Source of the DNA: Bacillota bacterium | GTDB taxonomy: Bacteria; Bacillota; UBA994 | Length of the DNA stretch: 64,000 bases | Direction: 5' to 3' | Assembly: GCA_018333655.1 (NCBI GenBank) | Contig: JAGXTJ010000010.1 | Span: 39,280 to 103,279 of the forward strand | Shown here: positions 9,902 to 64,000 of the stretch, piece after piece | Layout of the letters: the number at the start of each line of letters is the position of its first letter | How positions within the stretch are numbered: the first letter of the stretch is position 1 | Notes under the pieces: generated by a model | Database searches by the model: none | Seen by the model: only the letters and a program-made list of their open reading frames with translations | What the model was told of the DNA's origin: nothing | Program-made: the position numbers and the translations under genes

Positions 9902-11717
9902 GGACAAGCTAAAGCTCGTGCCTGCCCTCCCTGGGGTCTACCTGATGAAGGATAACGACGGCAGGGTGCTCTACGTCGGCAAAGCTAGGGTGCTTAAACA
10001 TAGGCTACGTAGCTACTTTCAGGCTGGCGCCAGTTATGAGCCGAAAGTAGCGGCCATGCTCGAAAAGACAGTGGACTTTGAGTACATCATCACCGATACT
10101 GAGCGCGAAGCCTTGGTCTTAGAGAGCAATCTTATCAAAGAGATGCGCCCCCATTACAACATTCGCATTAAAGACGACAAGCACTACCCTTACTTTAGGC
10201 TGTCAGTGCAGGACCCCTACCCTCGCCTGTCGATTGTGCGCCGTGTGGTTAATGACAAGGCGCGTTACTTCGGCCCCTACCCGCAAGTTAGCGTGGTCAG
10301 AGACATGTTTAAGCTCTTGAAGCGTATCATCCCCCTTATGACTTGCGACCGCGACGTAGCATATGGACATGTGAGCGGTAAAGTATGCCTTAACTACCAC
10401 CTTAAACAATGCCTGGGCGTCTGCACAGGCGAGGTTAGCGAGGCAGAGTACCGCAACTTAGTGAAGGAAGTGGAGATGCTCCTCGAAGGTAGGCACAAGC
10501 CCCTAGTGGAGAGTTTAACGAAGCAAATGGAACAAGCCGCCGCAGAGCTTAACTTTGAACGTGCTGCAACTCTGCGCGACCAAGTGCAGGCCATCGAAAG
10601 TCTGGCCGAGAAGCAAAAGTTTGATGCGGCTAAGCATGTCGAACGCGACATAGTGGGCTTAGTTGCTAGCTTAGAGGAAGCCTGTGCGACCATTTTTCAT
10701 ATGAGGGAAGGCAAGGTTATTGGGCGGGAGACCGTCTTTTTAGCGGGCAGTCTCGAGCAGAGCAGGGCAGAGGTACTGGCTGCCTTTCTCGCACAGTATT
10801 ATGCGGCCTCTCCTGTCGTTCCCAAAGAAATTATCCTCGCCACCGCGCCAGCCGAGCAAGAGATGTTAGAAGAAGTGCTTAGCAGGCAGAAGGGCGCTAA
10901 AGTGCTCTTAGCAGTGCCTAAACGTGGAGCCAACAAGGCCATGGTCGAGCTAGCAGAGCGTAACGCGGCGCAGAATCTCGCCGAGAGATGGGCTCGAGGG
11001 CCTGGGCAAGCAGAGCTAGCCAAGAAAGGCTTGTCCGAATTGGCACATCTCTTGGCCTTGCCAGCCCTCCCACAGCGGATAGAATGCTACGACATCTCAC
11101 ATATTCAAGGGACGCAGGCTGTTGGTTCCATGGTGGTGTTTCACGAAGGCCGGCCGGCGCGCTCGCAATATCGTCGCTTTAGGATCAAGTGGGTGGTGGG
11201 GCAAAACGACTACGCCTCTCTGCACGAGGTCTTGACACGGCGACTTACAGCCTTTCGCCAGGGCCAGAGCAAATTCGCGCCTTTGCCTGACCTTATGATT
11301 ATCGACGGGGGCCGGGGGCAACTGAACGCCGCCCTAGACGCGCTCAGGCAGGAAGAATACCCCGACATTCCCATAGTTGCTCTTGCCAAAGCGGAAGAAG
11401 AAGTATTTGCCCCCGACCGTGAGCGACCGATCATCCTTGCTCCCCACACGCAGGGGCGGTACCTTCTGCAGAGGGTTAGAGACGAGGCGCATCGTTTTGC
11501 CCTAGCCTACCACCAACAATTACGCCGCGATGCCCAGCTGGCCTCACGGCTAGAAGAGTGCCCAGGCATCGGGTCCCGTAGGCGCGTCGCGCTACTTAAG
11601 CACTTCGGCAATTTCGCCGCCGTCCTGCGAGCCTCGGTGGATGAGCTGGCCGCTGTAGAGGGCCTTAGTCGGGCCTTAGCTCTCCGCCTTTGGGAATTTT
11701 TACACTCACCAGACTAG
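9891..11717 (+). CDS. uvrC: Excinuclease ABC subunit C (UvrC)
   Basis: GIY-YIG N-terminus ([18 protein letters not shown]...YFQ), UvrBC interaction motif (FERAATLRD), and a C-terminal RNase H-like plus (HhH)2 region. TTG start after a GGGAGG RBS. It overlaps the uvrA stop. Confidence 0.93.
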
Positions 11718-53709: not shown

Positions 53710-55050
53710 TTGCTCTGGAAAGGGAGAGTGACTTGTTCTGTGTTCAAGAAGGTATGGGCAGAAAATGTGCGAACCTTACTGGCTGATAACGATATCACTG
53801 TGGCTGAGGCTGCGCGGCTACTGGGTACTTCTAAGCAGTATCTGACGACCATACTTGGCGAGAGCCTGCCGCAGAGCACCAAAGAACAGGTTGTAGAGAG
53901 TCTTTCTTTACTGCTCCATGCACACCCGGGCAGGCTCTATTCCCCTCTGCCCCTAGTCCCAGAGGAACAACTCACCACAGCGCCTGCGGTAAACTGGCAG
54001 CTGCTGGACATGCCCGTCAGTGCCGCCGAGCAGGCCGTACTAGCTGAGCGTCATTTTTTGGGCGGCGACTATCGCGGTAGCCTGGCCTTTGTCAGACACC
54101 TACTGGCCGCGCATGGAGAGAGCCTCTTGCCCATAGCCACGGCGCAGGCACAACTTCTCGCCGGAAAGTCGGCGTGCCTGCTTGGGCAATCCGCCTTGGC
54201 GAGGGAATACCTCAAGTTGGCACAGCGCGTCTTTCAGAAGCGAGTCAGCGCCCAACCACAAAAATACTTGCCCCTGTGTCTAGAATGTTATCGCTACGGG
54301 GCCCTGGCGGCTCACATGGAGAGAGATTACGCCCTGGCGATGAAGCTACAGCGTCAAGCACTGCAGCTCTTAGTGAAACACCGGGGCGAGGACGATAATC
54401 TGGGCATGAAGTGGGAAACTTTAGGACAGAATATACTGCGTACGGTGGTCAAGCAGGGCAGACTGTCGGGCATCGTCGCGGTTGCCGACGAGCTCGAGGC
54501 TTTAGCAGGCCGGCTTGATTCCCCGGCGTTATCTGAGCGCGCAGTATTCACGCGGCAGTTCGCCCTCTATGCCGTGGCAAGGGCGCAAGGCATTCCGGGC
54601 CAGCAGGCCATGATGCCACCACCTCAGCTAGTGAGAGACGCCTATATATTCCTCCACTACGGGCTAGTGTTGTGGGATAGGGGTGGAGACCTGCGGCTCT
54701 TTACCGATAGCCTGCCGGTGGATACAGGTAGCGAAGAACTTGCCCTAGTCCATGAATGGTTGAGCAACCTGGCCGAGACCGGTGAAACAAAACTACGCTT
54801 TTCGTCGACCAACACCCTAAAGCCATGGGGTCTCCTAATAGGGGCCTGTACCGCACTAGAAAGTGATGCTCTGCAGGCTTTTCACATGTGGCAAGAGGCC
54901 CTGTTCGATCTCAAGGCTAACCGCGATATACCCCTGTACCTGTATTCCTTGGCCATGGGGCTCGATAAGTTTTCTGCCCATATTACGGCCCATAACCGCC
55001 AAGTGCTGCAAGCGGTGCTCGATAAAGTCCTGTCTCAGTTTACAGCATAG
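53710..55050 (+). CDS. XRE-family HTH transcriptional regulator with large helical/TPR-like C-terminal domain
   Basis: N-terminal HTH (ITVAEAARLLGTSKQYLTTILG) followed by ~380 aa of helical repeats. True start uncertain: TTG 53710 or GTG ~53734. Confidence 0.6.
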   Translation: MLWKGRVTCSVFKKVWAENVRTLLADNDITVAEAARLLGTSKQYLTTILGESLPQSTKEQVVESLSLLLHAHPGRLYSPLPLVPEEQLTTAPAVNWQLLDMPVSAAEQAVLAERHFLGGDYRGSLAFVRHLLAAHGESLLPIATAQAQLLAGKSACLLGQSALAREYLKLAQRVFQKRVSAQPQKYLPLCLECYRYGALAAHMERDYALAMKLQRQALQLLVKHRGEDDNLGMKWETLGQNILRTVVKQGRLSGIVAVADELEALAGRLDSPALSERAVFTRQFALYAVARAQGIPGQQAMMPPPQLVRDAYIFLHYGLVLWDRGGDLRLFTDSLPVDTGSEELALVHEWLSNLAETGETKLRFSSTNTLKPWGLLIGACTALESDALQAFHMWQEALFDLKANRDIPLYLYSLAMGLDKFSAHITAHNRQVLQAVLDKVLSQFTA

Positions 55051-55078
55051 TTACCGAGATGCTTATAATAGTAGGGAG

Positions 55079-57226
55079 ATGAGATGGGTGGCAACTACCA
55101 GCAACGAAGACAAGATCCTGTACCTGATGCGGCAAAAAGTATACAAACCTTTAACCGAGAGCGAGTTGGTGCAAGCGCTAGCTGAGAGCGGAGAAGGCGA
55201 TGTACCCTGGCGCGAGCTTATCCTGGCTCTTGAGCAGTCCGGCCACATCATTAAGACGCGCTATCATCGCTATGGCTTGCCAGAGCAGATGAATTTGGTC
55301 GTGGGGCACCTACTCATGCAAGCCCCAGGGTATGGCTTTGTAGTGCCGCAAGTAAAAAACGGCCAGAGTGACATCTATATTCCCAGCCACGCCCTAGGCG
55401 AAGCCTTCCATCAAGACAAGGTCGTGGTACGCCTAGTCAGCAAGCCTGCTGGCGACCGCAAAGCCGAAGGTGAAGTTATTCGGGTACTAGCTCGTAGGAA
55501 CGAGACCATTGTCGGCACCTTCTCTGGCTCCAGCGGGGAGTTCGGCTTCGTCAAGCCGGATGAAAAACGCCTGCCCTTTGCCGTCTTTATTCAGAAAGGA
55601 AAGACCGCAGGTGCGCAGGGCGGGGAAAAAGTAGTCGTGCGCATCACGCGCTGGCCGGTAAAGCGACAGGGACCCGAGGGTGAAGTCATTGAAGTGCTAG
55701 GGGCCGGCAGCGACCCCTTGGTGGCCATGCAAGGTGTGGCACGACAGCTTAATCTGCCGCGCGAGTTCTCCCAAGAAGTTTTAGCCGAGAGCGAGCAGGT
55801 TCAGTCTGAAATTGACGCCCGGGAGCTTGCCAAGCGCCGCGACTTACGTCAATCTAACATCGTCACCATAGATGGGGCAGATGCCAAAGACCTCGATGAC
55901 GCCGTAGAGGTCGAGATAGGTGCCAATGGCAACTTTCGCCTGGGGGTGCACATCGCCGACGTAGCCCACTATGTGCCGGAAAACTCTGCTCTGGACAAAG
56001 AGGCTTTCTGGCGGGGGACAAGCATCTACTTTCTCAATCAAGTCATACCCATGCTGCCGCCCGCCTTGTCGAACGGCATTTGCAGCTTGAATCCACGTGT
56101 TGACCGCCTAGCGCTGAGTATAGTTATGGAAATCGATCACCAAGGTCAGGTCGTAAGTCACGACCTGTTTGAAAGCGTAATCAAGACGCGGGAGCGTTTT
56201 ACCTACACGGAAGTCAATGAGTTGCTTGCAGGCACGGATGCAGCTCTGCGTGAGAGATACGCTGATCAACTTGCACACCTAGAGCTCATGGTTAAACTGC
56301 GCGACTTGCTCCGTGTAAAGCGCGAAAAGCGTGGCTCCATCGATTTCGAGCTGTCTGAGGCCAAGATCACCCTTGACGACAAGGGTCACGTAGCAGACAT
56401 TGCGCCTCGTGCTAGGACCCTTTCTGACAGTATCATTGAAGAATTCATGTTAGCCGCGAATGAAACTGTCGCCGCGCGCTTTTATGACCTGCAGGTGCCC
56501 TTTGTGTACCGGGTACATGAGGAACCCAAGGAAGAGAAAATAGAAGACCTTAATCTGCTGCTAAACAATTTTGGCCTGCGCATCAAGACACCGCGCGGTA
56601 AGCTGCACCCCCACGCCTTTAGGCAGGTGATGGACAGTATCGAAGGCAGGCCCGAGGCCCATCTCCTAAATCGCGTCCTGCTGCGCTCCATGATGCGCGC
56701 GCGTTACAGCCCCGATTGCGCTGGTCACTTTGGCCTCGCCGCCAAATTCTACTGCCACTTTACCTCGCCCATAAGGCGCTACCCAGACCTCTTAATTCAT
56801 CGCATCATCAAAGAGGTGCTCAGGGAGGGACAAATTTCTTCGCGGCGGGGGCGTCTGCTGACCGAGGTAGTCGATAGCGCTGCGCGGCAATCATCCGAGC
56901 GCGAGCAGCTGGCTACGGAGGCCGAGCGCACCATCGAGGACATCAAGAAGGCGGAATACATGGCCGGAAAAATAGGCGAGACCTTTGCGGGCATTATCTC
57001 CGGAGTGGTTTCCTTTGGTTTCTTTGTGGAGCTGCCGAACACGGTAGAAGGGCTTGTGCATGTGTCAAACCTGCATGATGATTACTACGTGTTTGATGCC
57101 GAAGCCTATACTCTAGTGGGTCGTCGTCTAAAGAAGCGTTACCGCATGGGAGACGCCGTGCAGATAAAGGTAGAGAAAGTAAATGTCGAAGAAGCAACCG
57201 TCGATTTTTCTCTTCTCGAGACCTAA
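55079..57226 (+). CDS. rnr: Ribonuclease R
   Basis: N-terminal HTH/cold-shock region, RNB catalytic domain (DGADAKDLDDAV), and a C-terminal S1 domain. ATG 55079 after AGGGAG. The ORF track's 54863 start is an artefactual N-terminal extension that overlaps the upstream gene. Confidence 0.92.
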   Translation: MRWVATTSNEDKILYLMRQKVYKPLTESELVQALAESGEGDVPWRELILALEQSGHIIKTRYHRYGLPEQMNLVVGHLLMQAPGYGFVVPQVKNGQSDIYIPSHALGEAFHQDKVVVRLVSKPAGDRKAEGEVIRVLARRNETIVGTFSGSSGEFGFVKPDEKRLPFAVFIQKGKTAGAQGGEKVVVRITRWPVKRQGPEGEVIEVLGAGSDPLVAMQGVARQLNLPREFSQEVLAESEQVQSEIDARELAKRRDLRQSNIVTIDGADAKDLDDAVEVEIGANGNFRLGVHIADVAHYVPENSALDKEAFWRGTSIYFLNQVIPMLPPALSNGICSLNPRVDRLALSIVMEIDHQGQVVSHDLFESVIKTRERFTYTEVNELLAGTDAALRERYADQLAHLELMVKLRDLLRVKREKRGSIDFELSEAKITLDDKGHVADIAPRARTLSDSIIEEFMLAANETVAARFYDLQVPFVYRVHEEPKEEKIEDLNLLLNNFGLRIKTPRGKLHPHAFRQVMDSIEGRPEAHLLNRVLLRSMMRARYSPDCAGHFGLAAKFYCHFTSPIRRYPDLLIHRIIKEVLREGQISSRRGRLLTEVVDSAARQSSEREQLATEAERTIEDIKKAEYMAGKIGETFAGIISGVVSFGFFVELPNTVEGLVHVSNLHDDYYVFDAEAYTLVGRRLKKRYRMGDAVQIKVEKVNVEEATVDFSLLET

Positions 57227-57603: not shown

Positions 57604-58029
57604 ATGCTGCGGCAGCGCCCGGTAGCCCCCGATTTTAAGCCCCACCGCCTTGGTCTAGAGCAGGTGCTAGGTGAGCTTGAGGCCGAAATTATGGAGATAG
57701 TCTGGACGGTAGGGGAGACAACGGTGCGCGAGGTGCATCACAGTTTGCTTAAAGTCCGCGACATTGCCTATACTACGGTGATGACGGTAATGACACGGCT
57801 AGCAGACAAAGGTCTCCTCCTGCGCGAGGCTGATGGTCATGCCTACCTCTATCGACCGCGCCTGTCTCGTGCGGCCTTCGTTTCAGAGATGGTCGGCGAA
57901 GTGCTCGATGCACTGCTGGCCTCGCATTCCTCCCAGACGGTCTCTCATTTTATGGCCCGCCTCGACCAGGCCAATGCTCTAGAACTGCAAGCACTAGAGG
58001 AACTCATTCGAAAGCGCAAGGGGGGGTAA
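57604..58029 (+). CDS. BlaI/MecI/CopY-family transcriptional repressor
   Basis: Winged-helix N-terminus (LGELEAEIMEIVWTVGETTVREVHHSL...YTTVMTVMTRLADKGLL) and a C-terminal dimerisation helix. 141 aa. Confidence 0.85.
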   Translation: MLRQRPVAPDFKPHRLGLEQVLGELEAEIMEIVWTVGETTVREVHHSLLKVRDIAYTTVMTVMTRLADKGLLLREADGHAYLYRPRLSRAAFVSEMVGEVLDALLASHSSQTVSHFMARLDQANALELQALEELIRKRKGG

Positions 58030-58940
58030 TGGTGTCCTTTAACCTCATGGTTGCCCCCTACATCCTCTATGTGCTCGTGAGCGGGGCTCTGCTCTACGGC
58101 GGAGCGCAAGTGTTATCGCGCCTACTGCCCTTGCCCCCTCGGACGAAAATGTTGCTTTATGCCGGAGTCCTCATTTTACCCGTTGTGACGTATACCTACT
58201 ACTTGCGCCATATGTCCGCAGACTGCGACATGTTAGCGAACCCCGAGGCACTTCGTATCTGTTCGCTGGCCTACCGCTACAGCGACATCCTTACACCTTT
58301 GACCCTACTACTTCTCGTCGTTTATGCGCTGTGGCGTGCTTGGCAAGTCTTAGCGTCTCCCGTTAGACGAAGCCGCATCAGCACCGACAGCGCCTTAGTC
58401 ACACGTGTGCGCAGTATCCTCCAGGAATGGGGCTACCACGACAAAGTAGCTATTGGCATCATCGACAGTCACTACCCCACGGCCTTTGTCAGAGGTTTTT
58501 TTCGCCCCGAGCTCGTGCTTTCGCGCGGTATGCTAGACCTCTTACCAGATGAAGCACTGCGCTCAGTGCTTGCACACGAAGTTTCGCACCTCGAGGGTGG
58601 CGACAATGTCTACAATCTGGTGCTGCTCTTACGAGAAGTCGCTTTCTTTTCGCCCTTTGCGCATCTCGCTTACCAGGGCTACACTGAAGAGTGCGAGTTG
58701 GCAGCAGATATGGCCGCGGGTAAACGTTCTGACAAACTAGCCCTCGCTTCTGCTATTCTTAAGGTCACACAAAGAGGGCAGGAGCTGTATCGCTTTGCCT
58801 GGCAGCACAGTTACTTAGTGGGAAGAGCGTCCGTGTCTTTGCGGGTGCATTCCCTATTGCGCGAAGGCCAGGTCTACTCTGCTTTGCCGCCATGGTTGGC
58901 GCTTAGCCTACTCGCCACGCTGGTGTTGGCGCTATGTTAG
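58029..58940 (+). CDS. BlaR1-like M56 family zinc peptidase (signal-transducing anti-repressor; short form without extracellular sensor domain)
   Basis: Four TM segments and an HExxH motif (LAHEVSHLEGGDN). Translationally coupled to the BlaI-like gene (TAATG). Confidence 0.75.
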   Translation: MVSFNLMVAPYILYVLVSGALLYGGAQVLSRLLPLPPRTKMLLYAGVLILPVVTYTYYLRHMSADCDMLANPEALRICSLAYRYSDILTPLTLLLLVVYALWRAWQVLASPVRRSRISTDSALVTRVRSILQEWGYHDKVAIGIIDSHYPTAFVRGFFRPELVLSRGMLDLLPDEALRSVLAHEVSHLEGGDNVYNLVLLLREVAFFSPFAHLAYQGYTEECELAADMAAGKRSDKLALASAILKVTQRGQELYRFAWQHSYLVGRASVSLRVHSLLREGQVYSALPPWLALSLLATLVLALC

Positions 58941-59001
58941 CCCTGCGGGGCTTTTTCTCGGGACTATGTACTACAATGTGTAGTAGTAAGGAGCAGTAAC
59001 G

Positions 59002-60162
59002 GTGATAAAATTTCTGCAAGTAGCACTTAAGAATTTGTTTAGAAGGCGCTTTCGCACCCTCCTGACTATCCTAGGCATCGCCATTGGTATCTCTATGCTC
59101 TTTAGCTTCTTGGCTTTTAGTCAAGGATACGAAGCTTCTATGCGGGGGGAGCTAAATAAAATAGGGGCGCATATGCTGGCCATCGCCAAAGGATGCCCCT
59201 ACGAGGCCACGGCTTTAATTATGCATGGCGGGGTCATAGAAGATTTTCTCACCACCGATGATGTACTGCGGGTCAGTGAAATGCCTAATGTACAGAGCGC
59301 CGTCGGCAATTTCATGAACCAAGTTGTGCTCCCTCACGGTAAGAGTGTGGTGGTATTTGGCATGAACGAGTACACTTTCGCTCAAAAACCATGGTGGGTG
59401 ATTCGCGGTGAGAGATTTACGGGGGAGAACTCCATCATTCTGCCTGAAACTATGGCCACCGAGCTCGGGCTCAACATTGGTGATGTCTACCGGATGCCGG
59501 GCAAAGAAATAGATTTCGTCATCAGCGGCCTACTAGAAAAGACAGGCACCCAGGACGACAAATTTGTCTATGTCCCCTTCGCTACTGCCCAGCGCTTGTT
59601 TAACGCTGAGGGCAAGGTGACCTCCATCTCCATCTTGCTCGAGGACTTGGGGCGTGTGCAAGAAGTGGTTGACAGTGTGGAGTCACTGCCCGATGTGCAG
59701 GCTATTACCATGTCGCAAGTGCTAGCTACTGCGCAAACGCTTATGAGTTCAGCCCAAGCTATGATCAACTCCATTGTAATTATCGCCGTAGTCATCAGTG
59801 CGCTGGGTGTCATGAACAGTATCCTCATGTCTGTCTTTGAGCGCACCAAGGAAATCGGCATGATGAAGGCCGTCGGAGCCACGGGGAGCGATATTATCGC
59901 CCTCGTATGGATAGAGAGCGTCATTCTGTCGCTGGCGGGTGGCGTGGTTGGCATACTGGCCTCCTTTGCTACAGCGAGTTTCATCGAAACATTTATCCGC
60001 GGCCTCATTCCCTTCGCCCCCTTAGGCGAGCTACTCGCCTTTGACGCTAACACGGTGGCAATCAGTCTGATGAGTTCACTTGTGCTTGGTCTAGTCGCAG
60101 GGGCTTATCCGGCCATACGAGCTGCGGAGTTAAGTCCCATGGAAGCCATAAGGAGTGAGTAG
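59002..60162 (+). CDS. ABC transporter permease, FtsX/MacB-like fold
   Basis: N-terminal TM segment, a large extracytoplasmic domain, and three C-terminal TM segments. GTG start after AAGGAG. Confidence 0.8.
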   Translation: MIKFLQVALKNLFRRRFRTLLTILGIAIGISMLFSFLAFSQGYEASMRGELNKIGAHMLAIAKGCPYEATALIMHGGVIEDFLTTDDVLRVSEMPNVQSAVGNFMNQVVLPHGKSVVVFGMNEYTFAQKPWWVIRGERFTGENSIILPETMATELGLNIGDVYRMPGKEIDFVISGLLEKTGTQDDKFVYVPFATAQRLFNAEGKVTSISILLEDLGRVQEVVDSVESLPDVQAITMSQVLATAQTLMSSAQAMINSIVIIAVVISALGVMNSILMSVFERTKEIGMMKAVGATGSDIIALVWIESVILSLAGGVVGILASFATASFIETFIRGLIPFAPLGELLAFDANTVAISLMSSLVLGLVAGAYPAIRAAELSPMEAIRSE

Positions 60163-60163
60163 C

Positions 60164-60823
60164 ATGAGCCTCATAGTAACAAGTAAACTAGGCAAGAACT
60201 ATCGTCGCGGCAGCGAAACCGTACACGCGCTAGAGGATGCCAGCCTCACCATCAAGGCGGGCGAACTCCTCGCCCTCGTCGGGCCATCTGGTTCCGGCAA
60301 GACAACTTTTATGAACTTACTGGGCTGCTTAGACACCCCGAGCTCCGGCAGCTACCTCCTCAATGGACAGGAAGTAGCCGGTCGCAAGGAAAGTGAACTC
60401 GTTAAAATTCGGCAGCAAAATATCGGCTTCGTCTTTCAGCAGTTTTTTCTTCTGCCCACTTTGACAGTGCAAGAAAATGTAGAGTTGCCTCTGCTCTTTA
60501 ACCCCAGTGGCAAGAGCCGGGCGAACGAACTGCTAGAGCTAGTCGGGCTCACCCACCGCAGGCATCACTTACCCAAGGAGCTTAGTGGGGGTGAAATGCA
60601 GCGTGTGGCCGTCGCCAGAGCCTTAATTAATCGGCCCAAGATTCTGCTCGCCGACGAACCCACCGGCAACCTCGACAGTAAGAACAGTGAAAAAGTAATG
60701 GCACTCTTTAACGACTTGCACAAGCAAGGTCTGACCATTGTCTTGGTTACCCACAACATGGAGATAGCGAAGCACAGTCAGAGAGTAGTTCGTTTGGCAG
60801 ATGGGCGGATTATCGAAAGCTAG
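60164..60823 (+). CDS. ABC transporter ATP-binding protein (MacB/LolD-type)
   Basis: GPSGSGKTT, LSGGEMQRV, and LLADEPTGNLD. ATG 60164 after AAGGAG. Confidence 0.9.
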   Translation: MSLIVTSKLGKNYRRGSETVHALEDASLTIKAGELLALVGPSGSGKTTFMNLLGCLDTPSSGSYLLNGQEVAGRKESELVKIRQQNIGFVFQQFFLLPTLTVQENVELPLLFNPSGKSRANELLELVGLTHRRHHLPKELSGGEMQRVAVARALINRPKILLADEPTGNLDSKNSEKVMALFNDLHKQGLTIVLVTHNMEIAKHSQRVVRLADGRIIES

Positions 60824-60880: not shown

Positions 60881-60985
60881 ACCAGGGCAACTATTACAAA
60901 ATATTTGCATAATTATCGAAGTGATGATATTATGTGCGTGAAAGTGAGACGGGCGTAGGCCTAAAGGCACCTAAGGACATGGGAC

Positions 60986-62212
60986 ATGGCTTATTTTTGT
61001 GAAAGGATGAGCAGGATGACGATGTCGGACAGTGGTAAGCGGCTTAAAATTACTACCTTGGGTCACTTTGCTGTCGTAAACGGGAGTAGCTGTATTTCGC
61101 ATTCCTGTGGTCGCTCGCGAAAGATATGGGATCTATTTAAGTTATTGCTGGTTCACCACGACCGTGTATTAATGCCGGAGTCTATTGTAGAACAGCTGTG
61201 GCCCGAAAAACCCTATGATGATGCCAGGGGGGCCGTCCGCACTCTTGTCCATAGGCTGCGGAGTGTGCTGGGTGAAGATATGGACTACATAAAGTTCACT
61301 CAAGGGGGCTATACCTTTAGCCTCTACCACGACGTCTGGTTAGATATACATGTTTTCGAGAACACCTGCCGACAAGCGCGACAACTAGCCAAGCAGGGCC
61401 TCATGCCAGAAGCTGTGCATCTGTACAAGCAGGGGCTATCGTTGTACCAAGGCGATTTGTTACCTGAATGCCCGTACAGTGATTGGTTGTTGCCCCATAG
61501 GGGTCATTACCACAGTCTGTATGTACAGGCCGTTGCTGAGCTGGCGGTATTGCTCGACGAGCAGCATTCCTACGCGGAGCTTGAGGAAGAAGTAACTAGA
61601 GCCCTCATGGTTGATTACTACGAAGAAACCCTGCACCTAATTTTACTGCAGACACTGCTGCGAGAAGGTAAATTCACCCAGGCCAAGTGGCATTACGAAA
61701 AGGTCACTTCTGTTTTCTACCGCGAAATGGGCCTCAAGCCGAGTGCGGCCATGAAAGGGCTCCTGCGCCTTATCTTAGGGCAAGAGACCGAAAACAACAG
61801 GGCGGCGGCAGAACATGTGCCCATACTAGATGCTGTGCCCTGCCAAGAGGAGTCTCGTGGGGCTCTCCTCTGCGAGCGCGAGGTTTTTAGGGTCATCTGT
61901 AGCCTAGAGAGCCGCCGTGCGGAGCGGACAGGCAGCACAGGGCAAGTGGCGGTGCTCGCCGTGACGCAGGCCCACATCAGCGATTCACTGCTAGGTGAGA
62001 AAGGTGATGAAGGCCACGTTCTCGAAAAGCTGCTACGGGCTGTGTTGCGCAAGGGCGATGTCCTCTGTCGCGATGGCCTTCATCAGTTCTTTGTCCTCCT
62101 TCCTGCTACCACTTATGAACAAGCGCAGAGCATCATCAGGCGAGTAGAGGACGCTGCTAAAGAAAGGGGGCTCTTACTAAGAAGGCGTCTACAGCCACTA
62201 AGCGCCTCTTAA
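60986..62212 (+). CDS. SARP-family regulator (OmpR-type winged helix + BTAD) with C-terminal degenerate GGDEF domain
   Basis: N-terminus LKITTLGHFAVVNG...WDLFKLLLVHHDRVLMPESIVEQLWPE...RTLVHRLRSVL is an OmpR/SARP wHTH, followed by a BTAD helical region (LYKQGLSLYQGDLLPE...). The C-terminal block ...VAVLAV...RKGDVLCRDGLHQFFVLLPATTYEQAQSIIRRV aligns with the GGDEF core: RxxD is retained and GGEEF is replaced by GLHQF. The start is uncertain between 60986 and ~61017. Confidence 0.65.
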   Translation: MAYFCERMSRMTMSDSGKRLKITTLGHFAVVNGSSCISHSCGRSRKIWDLFKLLLVHHDRVLMPESIVEQLWPEKPYDDARGAVRTLVHRLRSVLGEDMDYIKFTQGGYTFSLYHDVWLDIHVFENTCRQARQLAKQGLMPEAVHLYKQGLSLYQGDLLPECPYSDWLLPHRGHYHSLYVQAVAELAVLLDEQHSYAELEEEVTRALMVDYYEETLHLILLQTLLREGKFTQAKWHYEKVTSVFYREMGLKPSAAMKGLLRLILGQETENNRAAAEHVPILDAVPCQEESRGALLCEREVFRVICSLESRRAERTGSTGQVAVLAVTQAHISDSLLGEKGDEGHVLEKLLRAVLRKGDVLCRDGLHQFFVLLPATTYEQAQSIIRRVEDAAKERGLLLRRRLQPLSAS

Positions 62213-62239
62213 GGGTCTTAAGTATACATAGCTTCTGCA

Positions 62240-62278
62240 CCGCGGACCAGCGTTGGTCCGCGGCTTTGTCATTCTGTT
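62240..62278 (+). terminator. Intrinsic terminator (CCGCGGACCA-gcgt-TGGTCCGCGG + T-rich)
   Basis: 10-bp perfect stem, read directly. Confidence 0.75.
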
Positions 62279-62414
62279 GGGCTGTTTGTGTTCTAGCGAA
62301 ATATGTAATTAGTCTGTAATTTAGATGCAACCCCCATAAAACTTGCCTGTATCTAACTTGTAACCCCCTATTGCTACACTGACCTTAGTAAATGAAGAGT
62401 AGGAGGGTTTTCTC

Positions 62415-63179
62415 ATGACCAGGCTCGAACAGCGCCGACAGCGCCACCTGCACACACAAGAAAGCTGGCGTGCCTTAGGCAAAGTTGTCTTGTTGCTCTC
62501 CTTGGTTGCTCTGCTGCTCCTACCGCCAAAGTTGCCGATGGTTGGAGCAAAGTTTACAAGCTGGGGTCTTTCACAAGGGGCGCTGCGTAGCGGTGACTCA
62601 TCATACAGTCTATCCTTGCATCCTGGTAGTAGCATGACTAATGACAGCCCAGGGGATCCTGGTCCAGCTTTTAGGGTGGCGGAATGGAGAGGTGGACAGC
62701 TCAGTCTAGATTTTGGCACCTACCCTGTCGGCAACAACAGAAATTTTCCGCAGGTTCTCGTGGTGCACAATGCCAGCGGTTGGAGCTCGGGGCTACACTT
62801 GCAGCTCAGCGGCGAAGTAGCACAGTTCATCGCCATAGCCGAGCCAAGTGCATGGATCGGCCCACGTGGTAGCATCTCTCTAGGTTTTCGCCTCGCGAGT
62901 AGTCCGACTGATAAAGACGGTGAGTTCGTCGGCACCCTGCACATTGTAACTGACAGAGGAATTACGCTCGGCGCGTTACCAGTACGACTAAGGCTGGCTA
63001 AGGCCAAGAGTAGCGCTAGTCAAGCTACGTTACCTGCACCCCAAGTATCTGCGCCTGAAGTAGCCCTTAGTGACGAAGGAGGTAGTAGCGCAACTGGCGG
63101 TACCCCTTTTGAAGCTGAGGCGCAAAGCTCGGCCGGAGCAGAAGAAAGCGGTGAGACAAATGGAAATCCCGGTAGCTAA
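62415..63179 (+). CDS. Secreted/membrane-anchored accessory protein, TapA-position in a tapA-sipW-tasA-like operon
   Basis: N-terminal hydrophobic segment (VVLLLSLVALLLLPP), a following ...GAKFTSWG stretch with weak resemblance to the SipW-class AxFxDxE signal, and a Ser/Ala/Glu-rich acidic C-terminus. Overlaps the sipW start. Confidence 0.5.
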   Translation: MTRLEQRRQRHLHTQESWRALGKVVLLLSLVALLLLPPKLPMVGAKFTSWGLSQGALRSGDSSYSLSLHPGSSMTNDSPGDPGPAFRVAEWRGGQLSLDFGTYPVGNNRNFPQVLVVHNASGWSSGLHLQLSGEVAQFIAIAEPSAWIGPRGSISLGFRLASSPTDKDGEFVGTLHIVTDRGITLGALPVRLRLAKAKSSASQATLPAPQVSAPEVALSDEGGSSATGGTPFEAEAQSSAGAEESGETNGNPGS

Positions 63180-63759
63180 AAATTCATCGCTGCGCGATGC
63201 AGTGCATAAATTTTCTCGCCATGTCGGCAACTCTCTGTTTGTAATTTCTCTCGTCCTAGCGGTGGTCCTGGTGTTCTTCCTAATTCAGAGTCGTGTCACT
63301 GGGGGGGTGCCGGCCGTTCTTGGGCATCAGTTGTACATAGTTGGTGGCGGCAGCATGAGCCCTGCCTTCTCTGCAGGCAGCGTCGTCATGGTTCGGCCGC
63401 AGGAGGCCAGTACGATTCGCCTCGGCGACATTATCACTTATCGTGACCCCGATTCAAACACCACGGCCATCATTGTCACGCATCGTGTGGTAGGCATAGC
63501 ACAGGGCGAAGCGCTCACCTTTACGACCCGCGGCGACGCAAATCATGCCGATGACCCGCTACCGCTCCCGGCCAGCAACATTATCGGGCGCGTGGCCTAC
63601 ACCATCCCGTTTCTTGGCTACGTGCTTAGTTTTATGCAGACAAAGAACGGCATGTTGCTAATGCTCGTCCTACCGGCCAGTGTCGTAATTGTGGTCGAAG
63701 TGCGCAAGCTCATGGGCTACGCACGTAGCATAGATAACCAAGGGGGGGGATGCGTATAG
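63160..63759 (+). CDS. sipW: Signal peptidase I, SipW (archaeal/ER-type S26B) family
   Basis: TM anchor followed by YIVGGGSMSPAFSAGSVVMVRP (catalytic Ser region) and ...HRVVGI... ATG 63160 after GGTGAG; the ORF track start at 63070 is in frame but overlaps the upstream gene. Confidence 0.8.
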   Translation: MEIPVAKNSSLRDAVHKFSRHVGNSLFVISLVLAVVLVFFLIQSRVTGGVPAVLGHQLYIVGGGSMSPAFSAGSVVMVRPQEASTIRLGDIITYRDPDSNTTAIIVTHRVVGIAQGEALTFTTRGDANHADDPLPLPASNIIGRVAYTIPFLGYVLSFMQTKNGMLLMLVLPASVVIVVEVRKLMGYARSIDNQGGGCV

Positions 63760-63868
63760 CAGAGGCATTTGCAGCATCACACTCGCCTGAGGACGCTAGC
63801 CGGGCTGTCCGGTGTGGGCGTGGCGTACCGCAAGTACGTCAAAAATAGAATATAATGGAGGCCTAGAA

Positions 63869-64000
63869 GATGAAAACTAAAATGATCGTGAGCATGCTGA
63901 TTCTCGCTTTGGCCGCCGCCTTGGTCGGTGGCGCGACGATGGCTATCTTTACCGATACGGAGAACAACAATGGCAACACCTTTACCGCAGGTACGGTCAA
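63869..64000 (+). CDS. TasA/camelysin-family secreted protein (SipW-cognate signal peptide), 5' part only (window end)
   Basis: MKTKMIVSMLILALAAALVGGATMAIFTDTENNNGNTFTAGTV carries the hallmark AxFTDxE...NTFTAGT signal of SipW substrates. RBS TGGAGG. Confidence 0.8.

Follow-up and report, generated by a model that had tools for sequence, protein, structure and literature searches.

The SipW/TasA-like fibre operons that are widespread among anaerobic Bacillota raise the question of how their expression is controlled. In Bacillus, the tasA-type operon is governed by SinR, SlrR, AbrB and RemA, and we know of nothing resembling SinR/SlrR control for the SipW/TasA-like operons of anaerobic Bacillota. 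We have addressed this question at a locus contained in a stretch of 64,000 nucleotides from a Bacillota bacterium (assembly GCA_018333655.1, contig JAGXTJ010000010.1, positions 39,280 to 103,279), to which we refer as the window and where the gene of a SARP-type regulator is located directly upstream of such an operon. Taken as a whole, our analysis makes it moderately probable that this regulator is an activator of the adjacent operon that senses cyclic di-GMP (c-di-GMP) by a catalytically dead GGDEF domain. The parts of this reading differ in strength: that the regulator directly controls the operon next to it is highly probable, and sensing of c-di-GMP via the allosteric inhibitory site (I-site) of the domain is strongly suggested. 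Coordinates of all features are collected in Table 1.

By its OmpR-type winged helix followed by a BTAD domain, the regulator classifies as a SARP-type protein, in line with what an earlier note on this DNA had proposed. Its sequence scores 33.6 bits with Trans_reg_C of Pfam (cut-off 26.2), matches the BTAD model PF03704 over its full length (1-146) and is recognized by AfsR-type SARP models of NCBIfam. When the family profile was compared to sequences of the PDB, AfsR (5e-21) and EmbR were retrieved, followed by several GGDEF proteins that align at positions ~291-396. Structure prediction by AlphaFold2, based on 12 family members, gave a model with a mean predicted local distance difference test score (pLDDT) of 81.9, which finds structural matches in AfsR and EmbR and contains a low-confidence or disordered linker comprising residues 269-291 (259-281 in the 398-residue numbering), followed by a confidently predicted α/β domain. 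The start codon of the gene is ambiguous, with both candidate ATGs (60986 and 61016) being accompanied by a plausible ribosome-binding site. An identical public protein (P0001), originating from a metagenome-assembled genome (MAG) named 'Firmicutes bacterium', is annotated to start at M11, which corresponds to position 61016 and results in a length of 398 residues.

The domain beyond the linker displays a GGDEF fold, as indicated by Pfam, NCBIfam, hidden Markov model (HMM) alignments and the predicted model, but it encompasses ~113-125 residues instead of the ~150 that had been ascribed to it previously. Pfam GGDEF (PF00990) matches residues 345-393 with an E-value of 7e-5 and 23.1 bits (gathering cut-off 23.8), three close homologues carry a precomputed match to the same entry and the NCBIfam model of the cyclase SiaD matches residues 296-397 with an E-value of 8e-8. 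A classification as GGDEF_2, the PucR-type relative, was rejected, since its E-value in Pfam is 0.073 and GGDEF proper scores far better. HMM alignments place the segment LRKGDVLCRDGLHQFFVLLP on LRxxDxxxRxGGEEFxxLLP of SiaD, DgcR and SadC, which sets RKGD on the RxxD motif of the I-site and GLHQF, five residues past D358 of RKGD, on GGEEF. The earlier note had read the two motifs in the same way, as an intact RxxD and a lost GG(D/E)EF sequence. The alignments end at about residues 109-120 of target domains with lengths of 164-177 residues, and only ~14 residues further on the window protein stops; by this comparison, it lacks the final third of a canonical cyclase domain (~40-55 residues). With its active-site motif lost and its fold truncated, the domain is, as judged from its sequence, unable to make c-di-GMP. 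In PleD, the allosteric I-site consists of R359 and D362 of the RxxD motif, R390 and in addition R313 of an adjacent GGDEF domain (PMC7288161). The spacing of R355, D358 and R386 in the window protein is identical to that of R359, D362 and R390 of PleD, without any gaps. The fourth residue, R314, resides at the end of helix α1, where R313 of PleD is probably located as well.

The same combination of features is found throughout a large family. An exhaustive profile search yielded at least 150 clusters at 50% identity, with the best 150 cluster representatives all being ~400 residues long and matching over their full length with E-values below 1e-91, and it retrieved 3,569 representatives of 50%-identity clusters at an E-value of 1e-30. 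The notion of a rare family, as conveyed by ~14 relatives from a word-indexed search, was dismissed as an artefact of limited sensitivity in light of the at least 150 full-length clusters. Family members are named in databases only as 'BTAD domain-containing putative transcriptional regulator' or 'SARP family activator', and their carriers include the cultured Dethiobacter alkaliphilus (WP_264699294.1) as well as a species of Clostridium (WP_216305773.1). When 152 members were aligned, GG[DE]EF was not found in a single case and the site instead reads [SNG]x[SAN]Q[YF]. Conversely, R355 (150/152), D358 (151/152), R386 (149/152) and R314 (147/152) are four of the six best-conserved positions of the domain, and the I-site counterparts thus stay fixed while residues of the active site vary freely. 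This pattern, where the catalytic site has been dropped and the product-binding site is retained, fits known degenerate GGDEF receptors of c-di-GMP such as PelD (PMC7288161) and B. subtilis YdaK (PMC5422440, PMC7064775). As in these two proteins and in PopA and SgmT, the GGDEF fold of the window regulator has lost GG(D/E)EF and kept RxxD. In all four, this site binds c-di-GMP, often with matrix production as output, whereas the I-site of the window regulator is a predicted one. The four receptors are membrane-bound proteins, kinases or adaptors and none contains a fused DNA-binding domain as found in the window regulator, whose GGDEF domain in turn is C-terminally truncated, unlike theirs.

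The regulator gene ends, as noted before, with its own terminator, a hairpin at 62240-62263, equivalents of which are found in L004, L006 and L007 (compared loci are denoted by L numbers). For the transcription unit that follows, previously described as tapA-sipW-tasA-like, the SipW and TasA-like components were confirmed by TIGR02228, PF12389 and TIGR04088, whereas the first gene of 254 residues, which lacks a match in Pfam or NCBIfam, resembles TapA by its position only. Homologues of this gene occupy the same position in other loci, some with sub-threshold matches to SipW-type signal peptides. The sipW product reaches 120.3 bits with TIGR02228 (cut-off 51.85) and stays below the threshold of the NCBIfam equivalog for Bacillus SipW (127 against 190). 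The M73 gene is cut by the window edge and its fragment surpasses the cut-offs of PF12389 (24.8 against 22.5) and TIGR04088 (38.2 against 19). Its full copy in L001 encodes 153 residues (54.4 bits with PF12389) and is followed by a second M73 paralogue of 216 residues. With this second M73 gene, as seen in identical contigs, the operon consists of the 254-residue gene, sipW and two TasA-like genes, beyond which the same contigs contain an aminoacyl-tRNA synthetase gene and smpB. At 37 bits, as opposed to a cut-off of 450 for the TasA equivalog NF046066, the putative fibre proteins classify as TasA-like and not as orthologues of TasA. A SipW-type peptidase and M73 proteins with SipW-dependent signal peptides are shared with tapA-sipW-tasA of B. 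subtilis, sipW-tasA-calY of B. cereus and sipW-bsaA of C. perfringens; in comparison to those operons, the fibre proteins encoded here, at 153 and 216 residues, are considerably smaller, and Pfam and NCBIfam recognize no TapA homologue.

The proposed control of this operon by the regulator would be exerted at its promoter, where six heptamers that we propose to be SARP boxes follow each other at a distance of 11 nucleotides upstream of an extended -10 element, which is not preceded by any recognizable -35 element. The repeated AACCCCC/GTAATTT motifs pointed out in the earlier note are indeed present, but not as units of their own, being pieces of the phased heptamers instead. In SARP-dependent promoters, direct repeats are 11 or 22 bp apart and overlap the -35 position, with the 3' repeat located 8 bp from the -10 element (PMC10936776), and the sequence of the window array matches this layout. 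Phased TGnnAYn boxes followed by nnTGnTAnnnT are also found 3' of the regulator gene in other loci, including L034 and L007, whose regulator is 33% identical. A composite pattern of 22 nucleotides has 19 matches in 615,576 nucleotides (23 non-redundant loci, both strands), 13 of which, in 13 of the 23 loci, lie on the sense strand 106-216 nucleotides past the stop codon of the regulator and six elsewhere. Its sole match in the window is at 62359. The concentration of matches 3' of regulator genes is far beyond chance. No other run of at least three phased heptamers exists in the 64-kb window, including the region 5' of the regulator gene where such boxes would be a sign of autoregulation, and in simulated sequences runs of three occur on average 0.38 times and those of four 0.02 times.

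A diverging array was encountered in L013 (1894-1948), which encodes a regulator of 34% identity and contains five tandem units of 11 nucleotides (GTTAAKCACGA) in place of TGTAAYY boxes before a small-protein gene. The recognition helix of this regulator carries Q-N where other members carry R-T, and the sequence of the boxes may thus co-vary with the recognition helix, although this is a single anecdotal case.

Gene order was compared in homologue-bearing contigs and in 20 genome loci that belong to Dethiobacter, Clostridia and further MAGs of Bacillota. The regulator is located directly 5' of a SipW/M73 operon in the majority of loci, namely in the window and in L010, L004, L006, L014, L018, L007, L020, L022, L024, L026, L027, L032, L033 and L034, in a background of unrelated flanking genes and with regulator identities as low as ~31%. 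Promoter layout and synteny are together retained at 31-67% identity of the regulator in unrelated genomic contexts, and the recurrence of the module of regulator and operon in such contexts suggests that it moves as a unit. Exceptions are L019, where the downstream genes code for a small protein in tandem and a surface protein of the LPxTG type, L021 and L030, where the gene of an M73-like surface protein is found 5' of the regulator, and a subgroup of paralogues to which we return below.

An independent link of these operons to c-di-GMP is provided by riboswitches. In nine related operons (L004, L006, L010, L014, L018, L020, L026, L032 and L034), Rfam scans detected a c-di-GMP-I riboswitch or its GGC variant directly 5' of a TasA-like gene, and because of these riboswitches we assign the operon type to the c-di-GMP regulon. 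In L019, a c-di-GMP-I-GGC riboswitch is located on the opposite strand (10129-10215).

Several observations weigh against the regulator being a c-di-GMP-sensing activator of the operon. The riboswitch family RF01051 has no match in the window at the gathering threshold, nor any at an E-value of up to 10 in the region 62150-64000. Its absence is explained by a clean deletion of 62 nucleotides relative to the closest relative L010 in the spacer between sipW and the M73 gene (window 63760-63869; L010 6064-6140), with a junction at 63794/63795, which leaves a relic of the aptamer and spares the hairpin downstream as well as the Shine-Dalgarno sequence. An assembly error is unlikely, since the same gene spacing is found in contigs of independent assemblies. 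Moreover, no diguanylate cyclase was found in the examined part of the window, and ten large open reading frames elsewhere in the window, scanned for enzymes of c-di-GMP metabolism, encode housekeeping functions only. With the riboswitch lost and no cyclase in the examined part, c-di-GMP signalling in this organism is thus deduced from close relatives (L010). With respect to the sensor, the domain is truncated and its Pfam score falls 0.7 bits short of the gathering cut-off, and the equivalence of R314 with R313 of PleD, which is based on helix position and HMM alignments to other GGDEF proteins, is less certain. Finally, the promoter pattern was defined after viewing the data and, among the 13 promoter matches, L034 alone was fetched after its recognition.

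With these reservations, we envisage the following mechanism. The winged helix and BTAD domain would bind the array of six heptamers, which would replace the -35 element and permit recruitment of RNA polymerase to the promoter of the adjacent operon (62304-62380). The truncated GGDEF domain would act as c-di-GMP sensor through an I-site composed of R355xxD358, R386 and R314. At high concentrations, intercalated dimers of c-di-GMP would occupy this site and cross-link neighbouring protomers, which would lead to cooperative filling of the box array and turn on the operon, whose products would be SipW-processed fibre proteins of the TasA/camelysin family. Activation by cross-linking via (c-di-GMP)2 is a speculative element, proposed in analogy to the I-sites of PleD, and it would be well matched to six boxes arranged head to tail. 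Our analysis documents the architecture, the fold, the state and conservation of the motifs, the gene order, the promoter layout and the riboswitches of relatives; DNA binding, binding of c-di-GMP, the activating sign of the effect and the cross-linking mechanism are what we infer. A more far-reaching version, which we put forward tentatively and hold to be possible though rather doubtful, is that the protein defines a new class of c-di-GMP-dependent activators and the first such protein transcription factor in Clostridia and Dethiobacteria, where (c-di-GMP)2 bridges RxxD/R386 to R314 of the next protomer and polymerises protomers head to tail along six boxes spaced by one turn, and which together with the riboswitch inside the operon would confer two-tier control of fibre production. 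The two tiers would act on transcription initiation and at a checkpoint within the operon, and the window lineage, devoid of the riboswitch tier, would rely on the protein sensor alone.

Among the alternatives, the one to be taken most seriously, albeit unlikely, is that the regulator is a SARP activator of the adjacent operon whose GGDEF-like domain merely mediates oligomerisation or docking of a partner without binding c-di-GMP. Such a partner might be a cyclase with intact activity, or else the conserved protein of 75-95 residues that accompanies the regulator in most loci, where it is encoded downstream, with the arginine and aspartate residues assuming a structural role or one in protein-protein interaction. 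Truncation of the domain and its weak profile match would be in agreement with such a function, as would the existence of GGDEF-like domains without known nucleotide binding in PucR-type regulators, to which the weak GGDEF_2 match might relate. However, the best-conserved positions of the domain include all four I-site counterparts while active-site residues drift, the target operons bear c-di-GMP riboswitches and the domain is intact in the window, where the small protein is missing. Sensing of another nucleotide such as GTP, (p)ppGpp, cGAMP or c-di-AMP by the degenerate domain appears improbable. It has precedents in CC3396 and YybT, where binding of GTP or hydrolysis of ATP by a degenerate GGDEF domain is known (PMC7288161), and in structures of PleD with (p)ppGpp among the fold matches (9g85, 9g86), but the active site (A-site) has been lost with GG[DE]EF and the C-terminal part of the domain, the I-site is the part that is conserved and the operon context points specifically to c-di-GMP. 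Mere adjacency, with the regulator controlling other genes and the heptamers not being its binding site, is hardly credible: a subgroup of paralogues (P0006, P0008) does adjoin a GerE-family gene and a DUF4212-SSF transporter-acyl-CoA-synthetase cluster and has an ordinary sigma-70 promoter (TTGACA/TATAAT) in place of SARP boxes, yet the P0008 genome contains a second paralogue directly 5' of a TasA-like operon with the same box promoter, and synteny and promoter layout are preserved among the divergent regulators as described above.

Each of the components, namely SARPs, degenerate GGDEF receptors, c-di-GMP-responsive transcription factors and SipW/TasA operons, is already known. Their combination, a SARP with a GGDEF I-site as sensor that is dedicated to a TasA-like operon, which frequently carries a c-di-GMP riboswitch in addition, appears undescribed. 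Searches of the literature, limited in coverage, returned nothing relevant on a union of SARP or BTAD domains with GGDEF, on a connection between sipW and SARPs or on c-di-GMP riboswitches of TasA, sipW or camelysin genes, and they brought up neither a SARP nor a c-di-GMP riboswitch as a regulator of the tapA-sipW-tasA operons of the Bacillus type. The SARP activators AfsR (SARP domain), ActII-ORF4, DnrI and EmbR are from Actinobacteria, whereas the window regulator is from Bacillota. Their C-terminal extension is a NOD/TPR region in AfsR, an FHA domain in EmbR or missing in others, and a dead GGDEF domain in the window regulator. Known SARPs recognize two or three boxes and target antibiotic clusters, in contrast to the proposed six-box array in front of a surface-fibre operon. 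A SARP-type protein outside Actinobacteria that governs biofilm and surface structures is GSU1771 of Geobacter (REC-SARP, PMC10599522), which contains an N-terminal receiver as input domain, where the window regulator contains a C-terminal GGDEF domain. The proposed logic is shared with BldD, VpsT, FleQ, Clp, MrkH and LtmA, regulators of biofilm formation or development whose oligomeric state or DNA binding is altered by c-di-GMP; none of them senses by a GGDEF I-site and none is a SARP, whereas the window regulator is proposed to be both.

Table 1. Features of the regulator and its target operon in the window, with positions of a small protein in related loci.
Feature	Position	Strand	Basis
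Candidate sigma-70-like promoter of regulator gene, TTTGCA-18-TGnTATTAT	60904..60933	+	consensus match only
SARP regulator with dead GGDEF domain	60986..62212	+	408-residue open reading frame; probable start 61016, giving 398 residues
OmpR-type winged-helix DNA-binding domain, residues 45-108	61118..61309	+	Pfam Trans_reg_C, E 4e-8
BTAD domain, residues 119-264	61340..61777	+	Pfam BTAD, E 8.4e-17
Truncated, predicted catalytically dead GGDEF-fold domain, ~residues 292-404	61859..62197	+	Pfam, NCBIfam, AlphaFold2 model, HMM alignments
Putative partner arginine R314	61925-61927	+	family conservation, end of helix α1
RKGD, RxxD I-site motif, R355 and D358	62048..62059	+	read from sequence; HMM alignment
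GLHQF replacing GG(D/E)EF, residues 364-368	62075..62089	+	sequence; HMM alignments
Putative partner arginine R386	62141-62143	+	family conservation, PleD spacing
Intrinsic-terminator-like hairpin closing the regulator transcription unit	62240..62263	+	sequence
Six heptamers phased at 11 nucleotides, proposed SARP boxes, consensus TGTAAYY	62304..62365	+	sequence
Individual heptamers	62304 TGTAATT; 62315 TGTAATT; 62326 TGCAACC; 62337 TAAAACT; 62348 TGTATCT; 62359 TGTAACC		
Extended -10 element TGcTACACT, 9 nucleotides past last heptamer	62372..62380	+	sequence
First operon gene, membrane-anchored or secreted protein of 254 residues, TapA position	62415..63179	+	no Pfam/NCBIfam match
SipW-type (archaeal-like) signal peptidase I, 199 residues	63160..63759	+	TIGR02228, E 6.5e-35; also called in L001
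Relic of c-di-GMP-I riboswitch aptamer, last ~18 nucleotides	63795..63812	+	alignment to L010
TasA/camelysin-family (Peptidase_M73) gene, 5' part, SipW-dependent signal peptide	63870..64000	+	PF12389, TIGR04088; continues past window edge
Small protein of 75-95 residues	L004 9497-9733; L006 9497-9784; L034 360-590; L013 2008-2145; L019 8132-8680 (tandem duplicate)		

The surroundings of regulator and operon contain further genes. Directly 5' of the regulator (window 57604-60823), a BlaI/BlaR1-like pair of repressor and M56 sensor-protease is found together with a MacB-type ABC exporter consisting of permease and ATPase, and L010 has these genes next to its regulator, too, in contrast to loci that are more distant. 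These genes, the regulator, the TasA-like operon and the aminoacyl-tRNA synthetase gene fill a gap of ~11 kb between rnr, encoding RNase R, and smpB (window 54863-57226 and L002 4525-6463). In several family members, a membrane-associated protein of the GerE/LuxR family with 384-495 residues is encoded directly or closely 5' of the regulator (L034 8420-11182, L012 36-3108, L004 6201-7688). The small protein referred to above carries the motif FxIxIxF..W(Q/D)GxIxWLE..FRSxLEM and is encoded by the first gene past the SARP-box promoter in most relatives; it belongs to none of the families of Pfam and NCBIfam, is missing from L010 and, according to tblastn, from the window and may be a co-regulator or accessory factor. 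In other operons, wall-anchored proteins of the LPxTG type (LPRTDG) and a sortase are found beside M73 proteins (L019 8858-9595; L021 188-1210; L007 12512-13360 and 13517-14470), which hints at covalently anchored fibres. Shortly 3' of the TasA-like operon, loci of Dethiobacter and Clostridium MAGs contain a gene for selenocysteine tRNA (L004 12911-13003, L014 6487-6579).

If the proposed reading holds, the regulator would represent a new kind of c-di-GMP effector, where the I-site of a GGDEF domain serves as sensor of a DNA-binding activator, and the reach of SARP regulators would extend past the control of antibiotics in Actinobacteria. The proposal is directly testable, as it specifies the protein, a set of three or four point mutations and a promoter of 90 bp with a clear box consensus, and carriers of the family are in culture. 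A protein sensor and a riboswitch for one ligand acting on one operon, with the riboswitch having been naturally lost in the window, would offer a comparative system for layered control by a second messenger that is relevant to research on c-di-GMP and on biofilms of Gram-positive bacteria. It would also provide the first model of how the SipW/TasA-like fibre operons that are common among anaerobic Bacillota are regulated.

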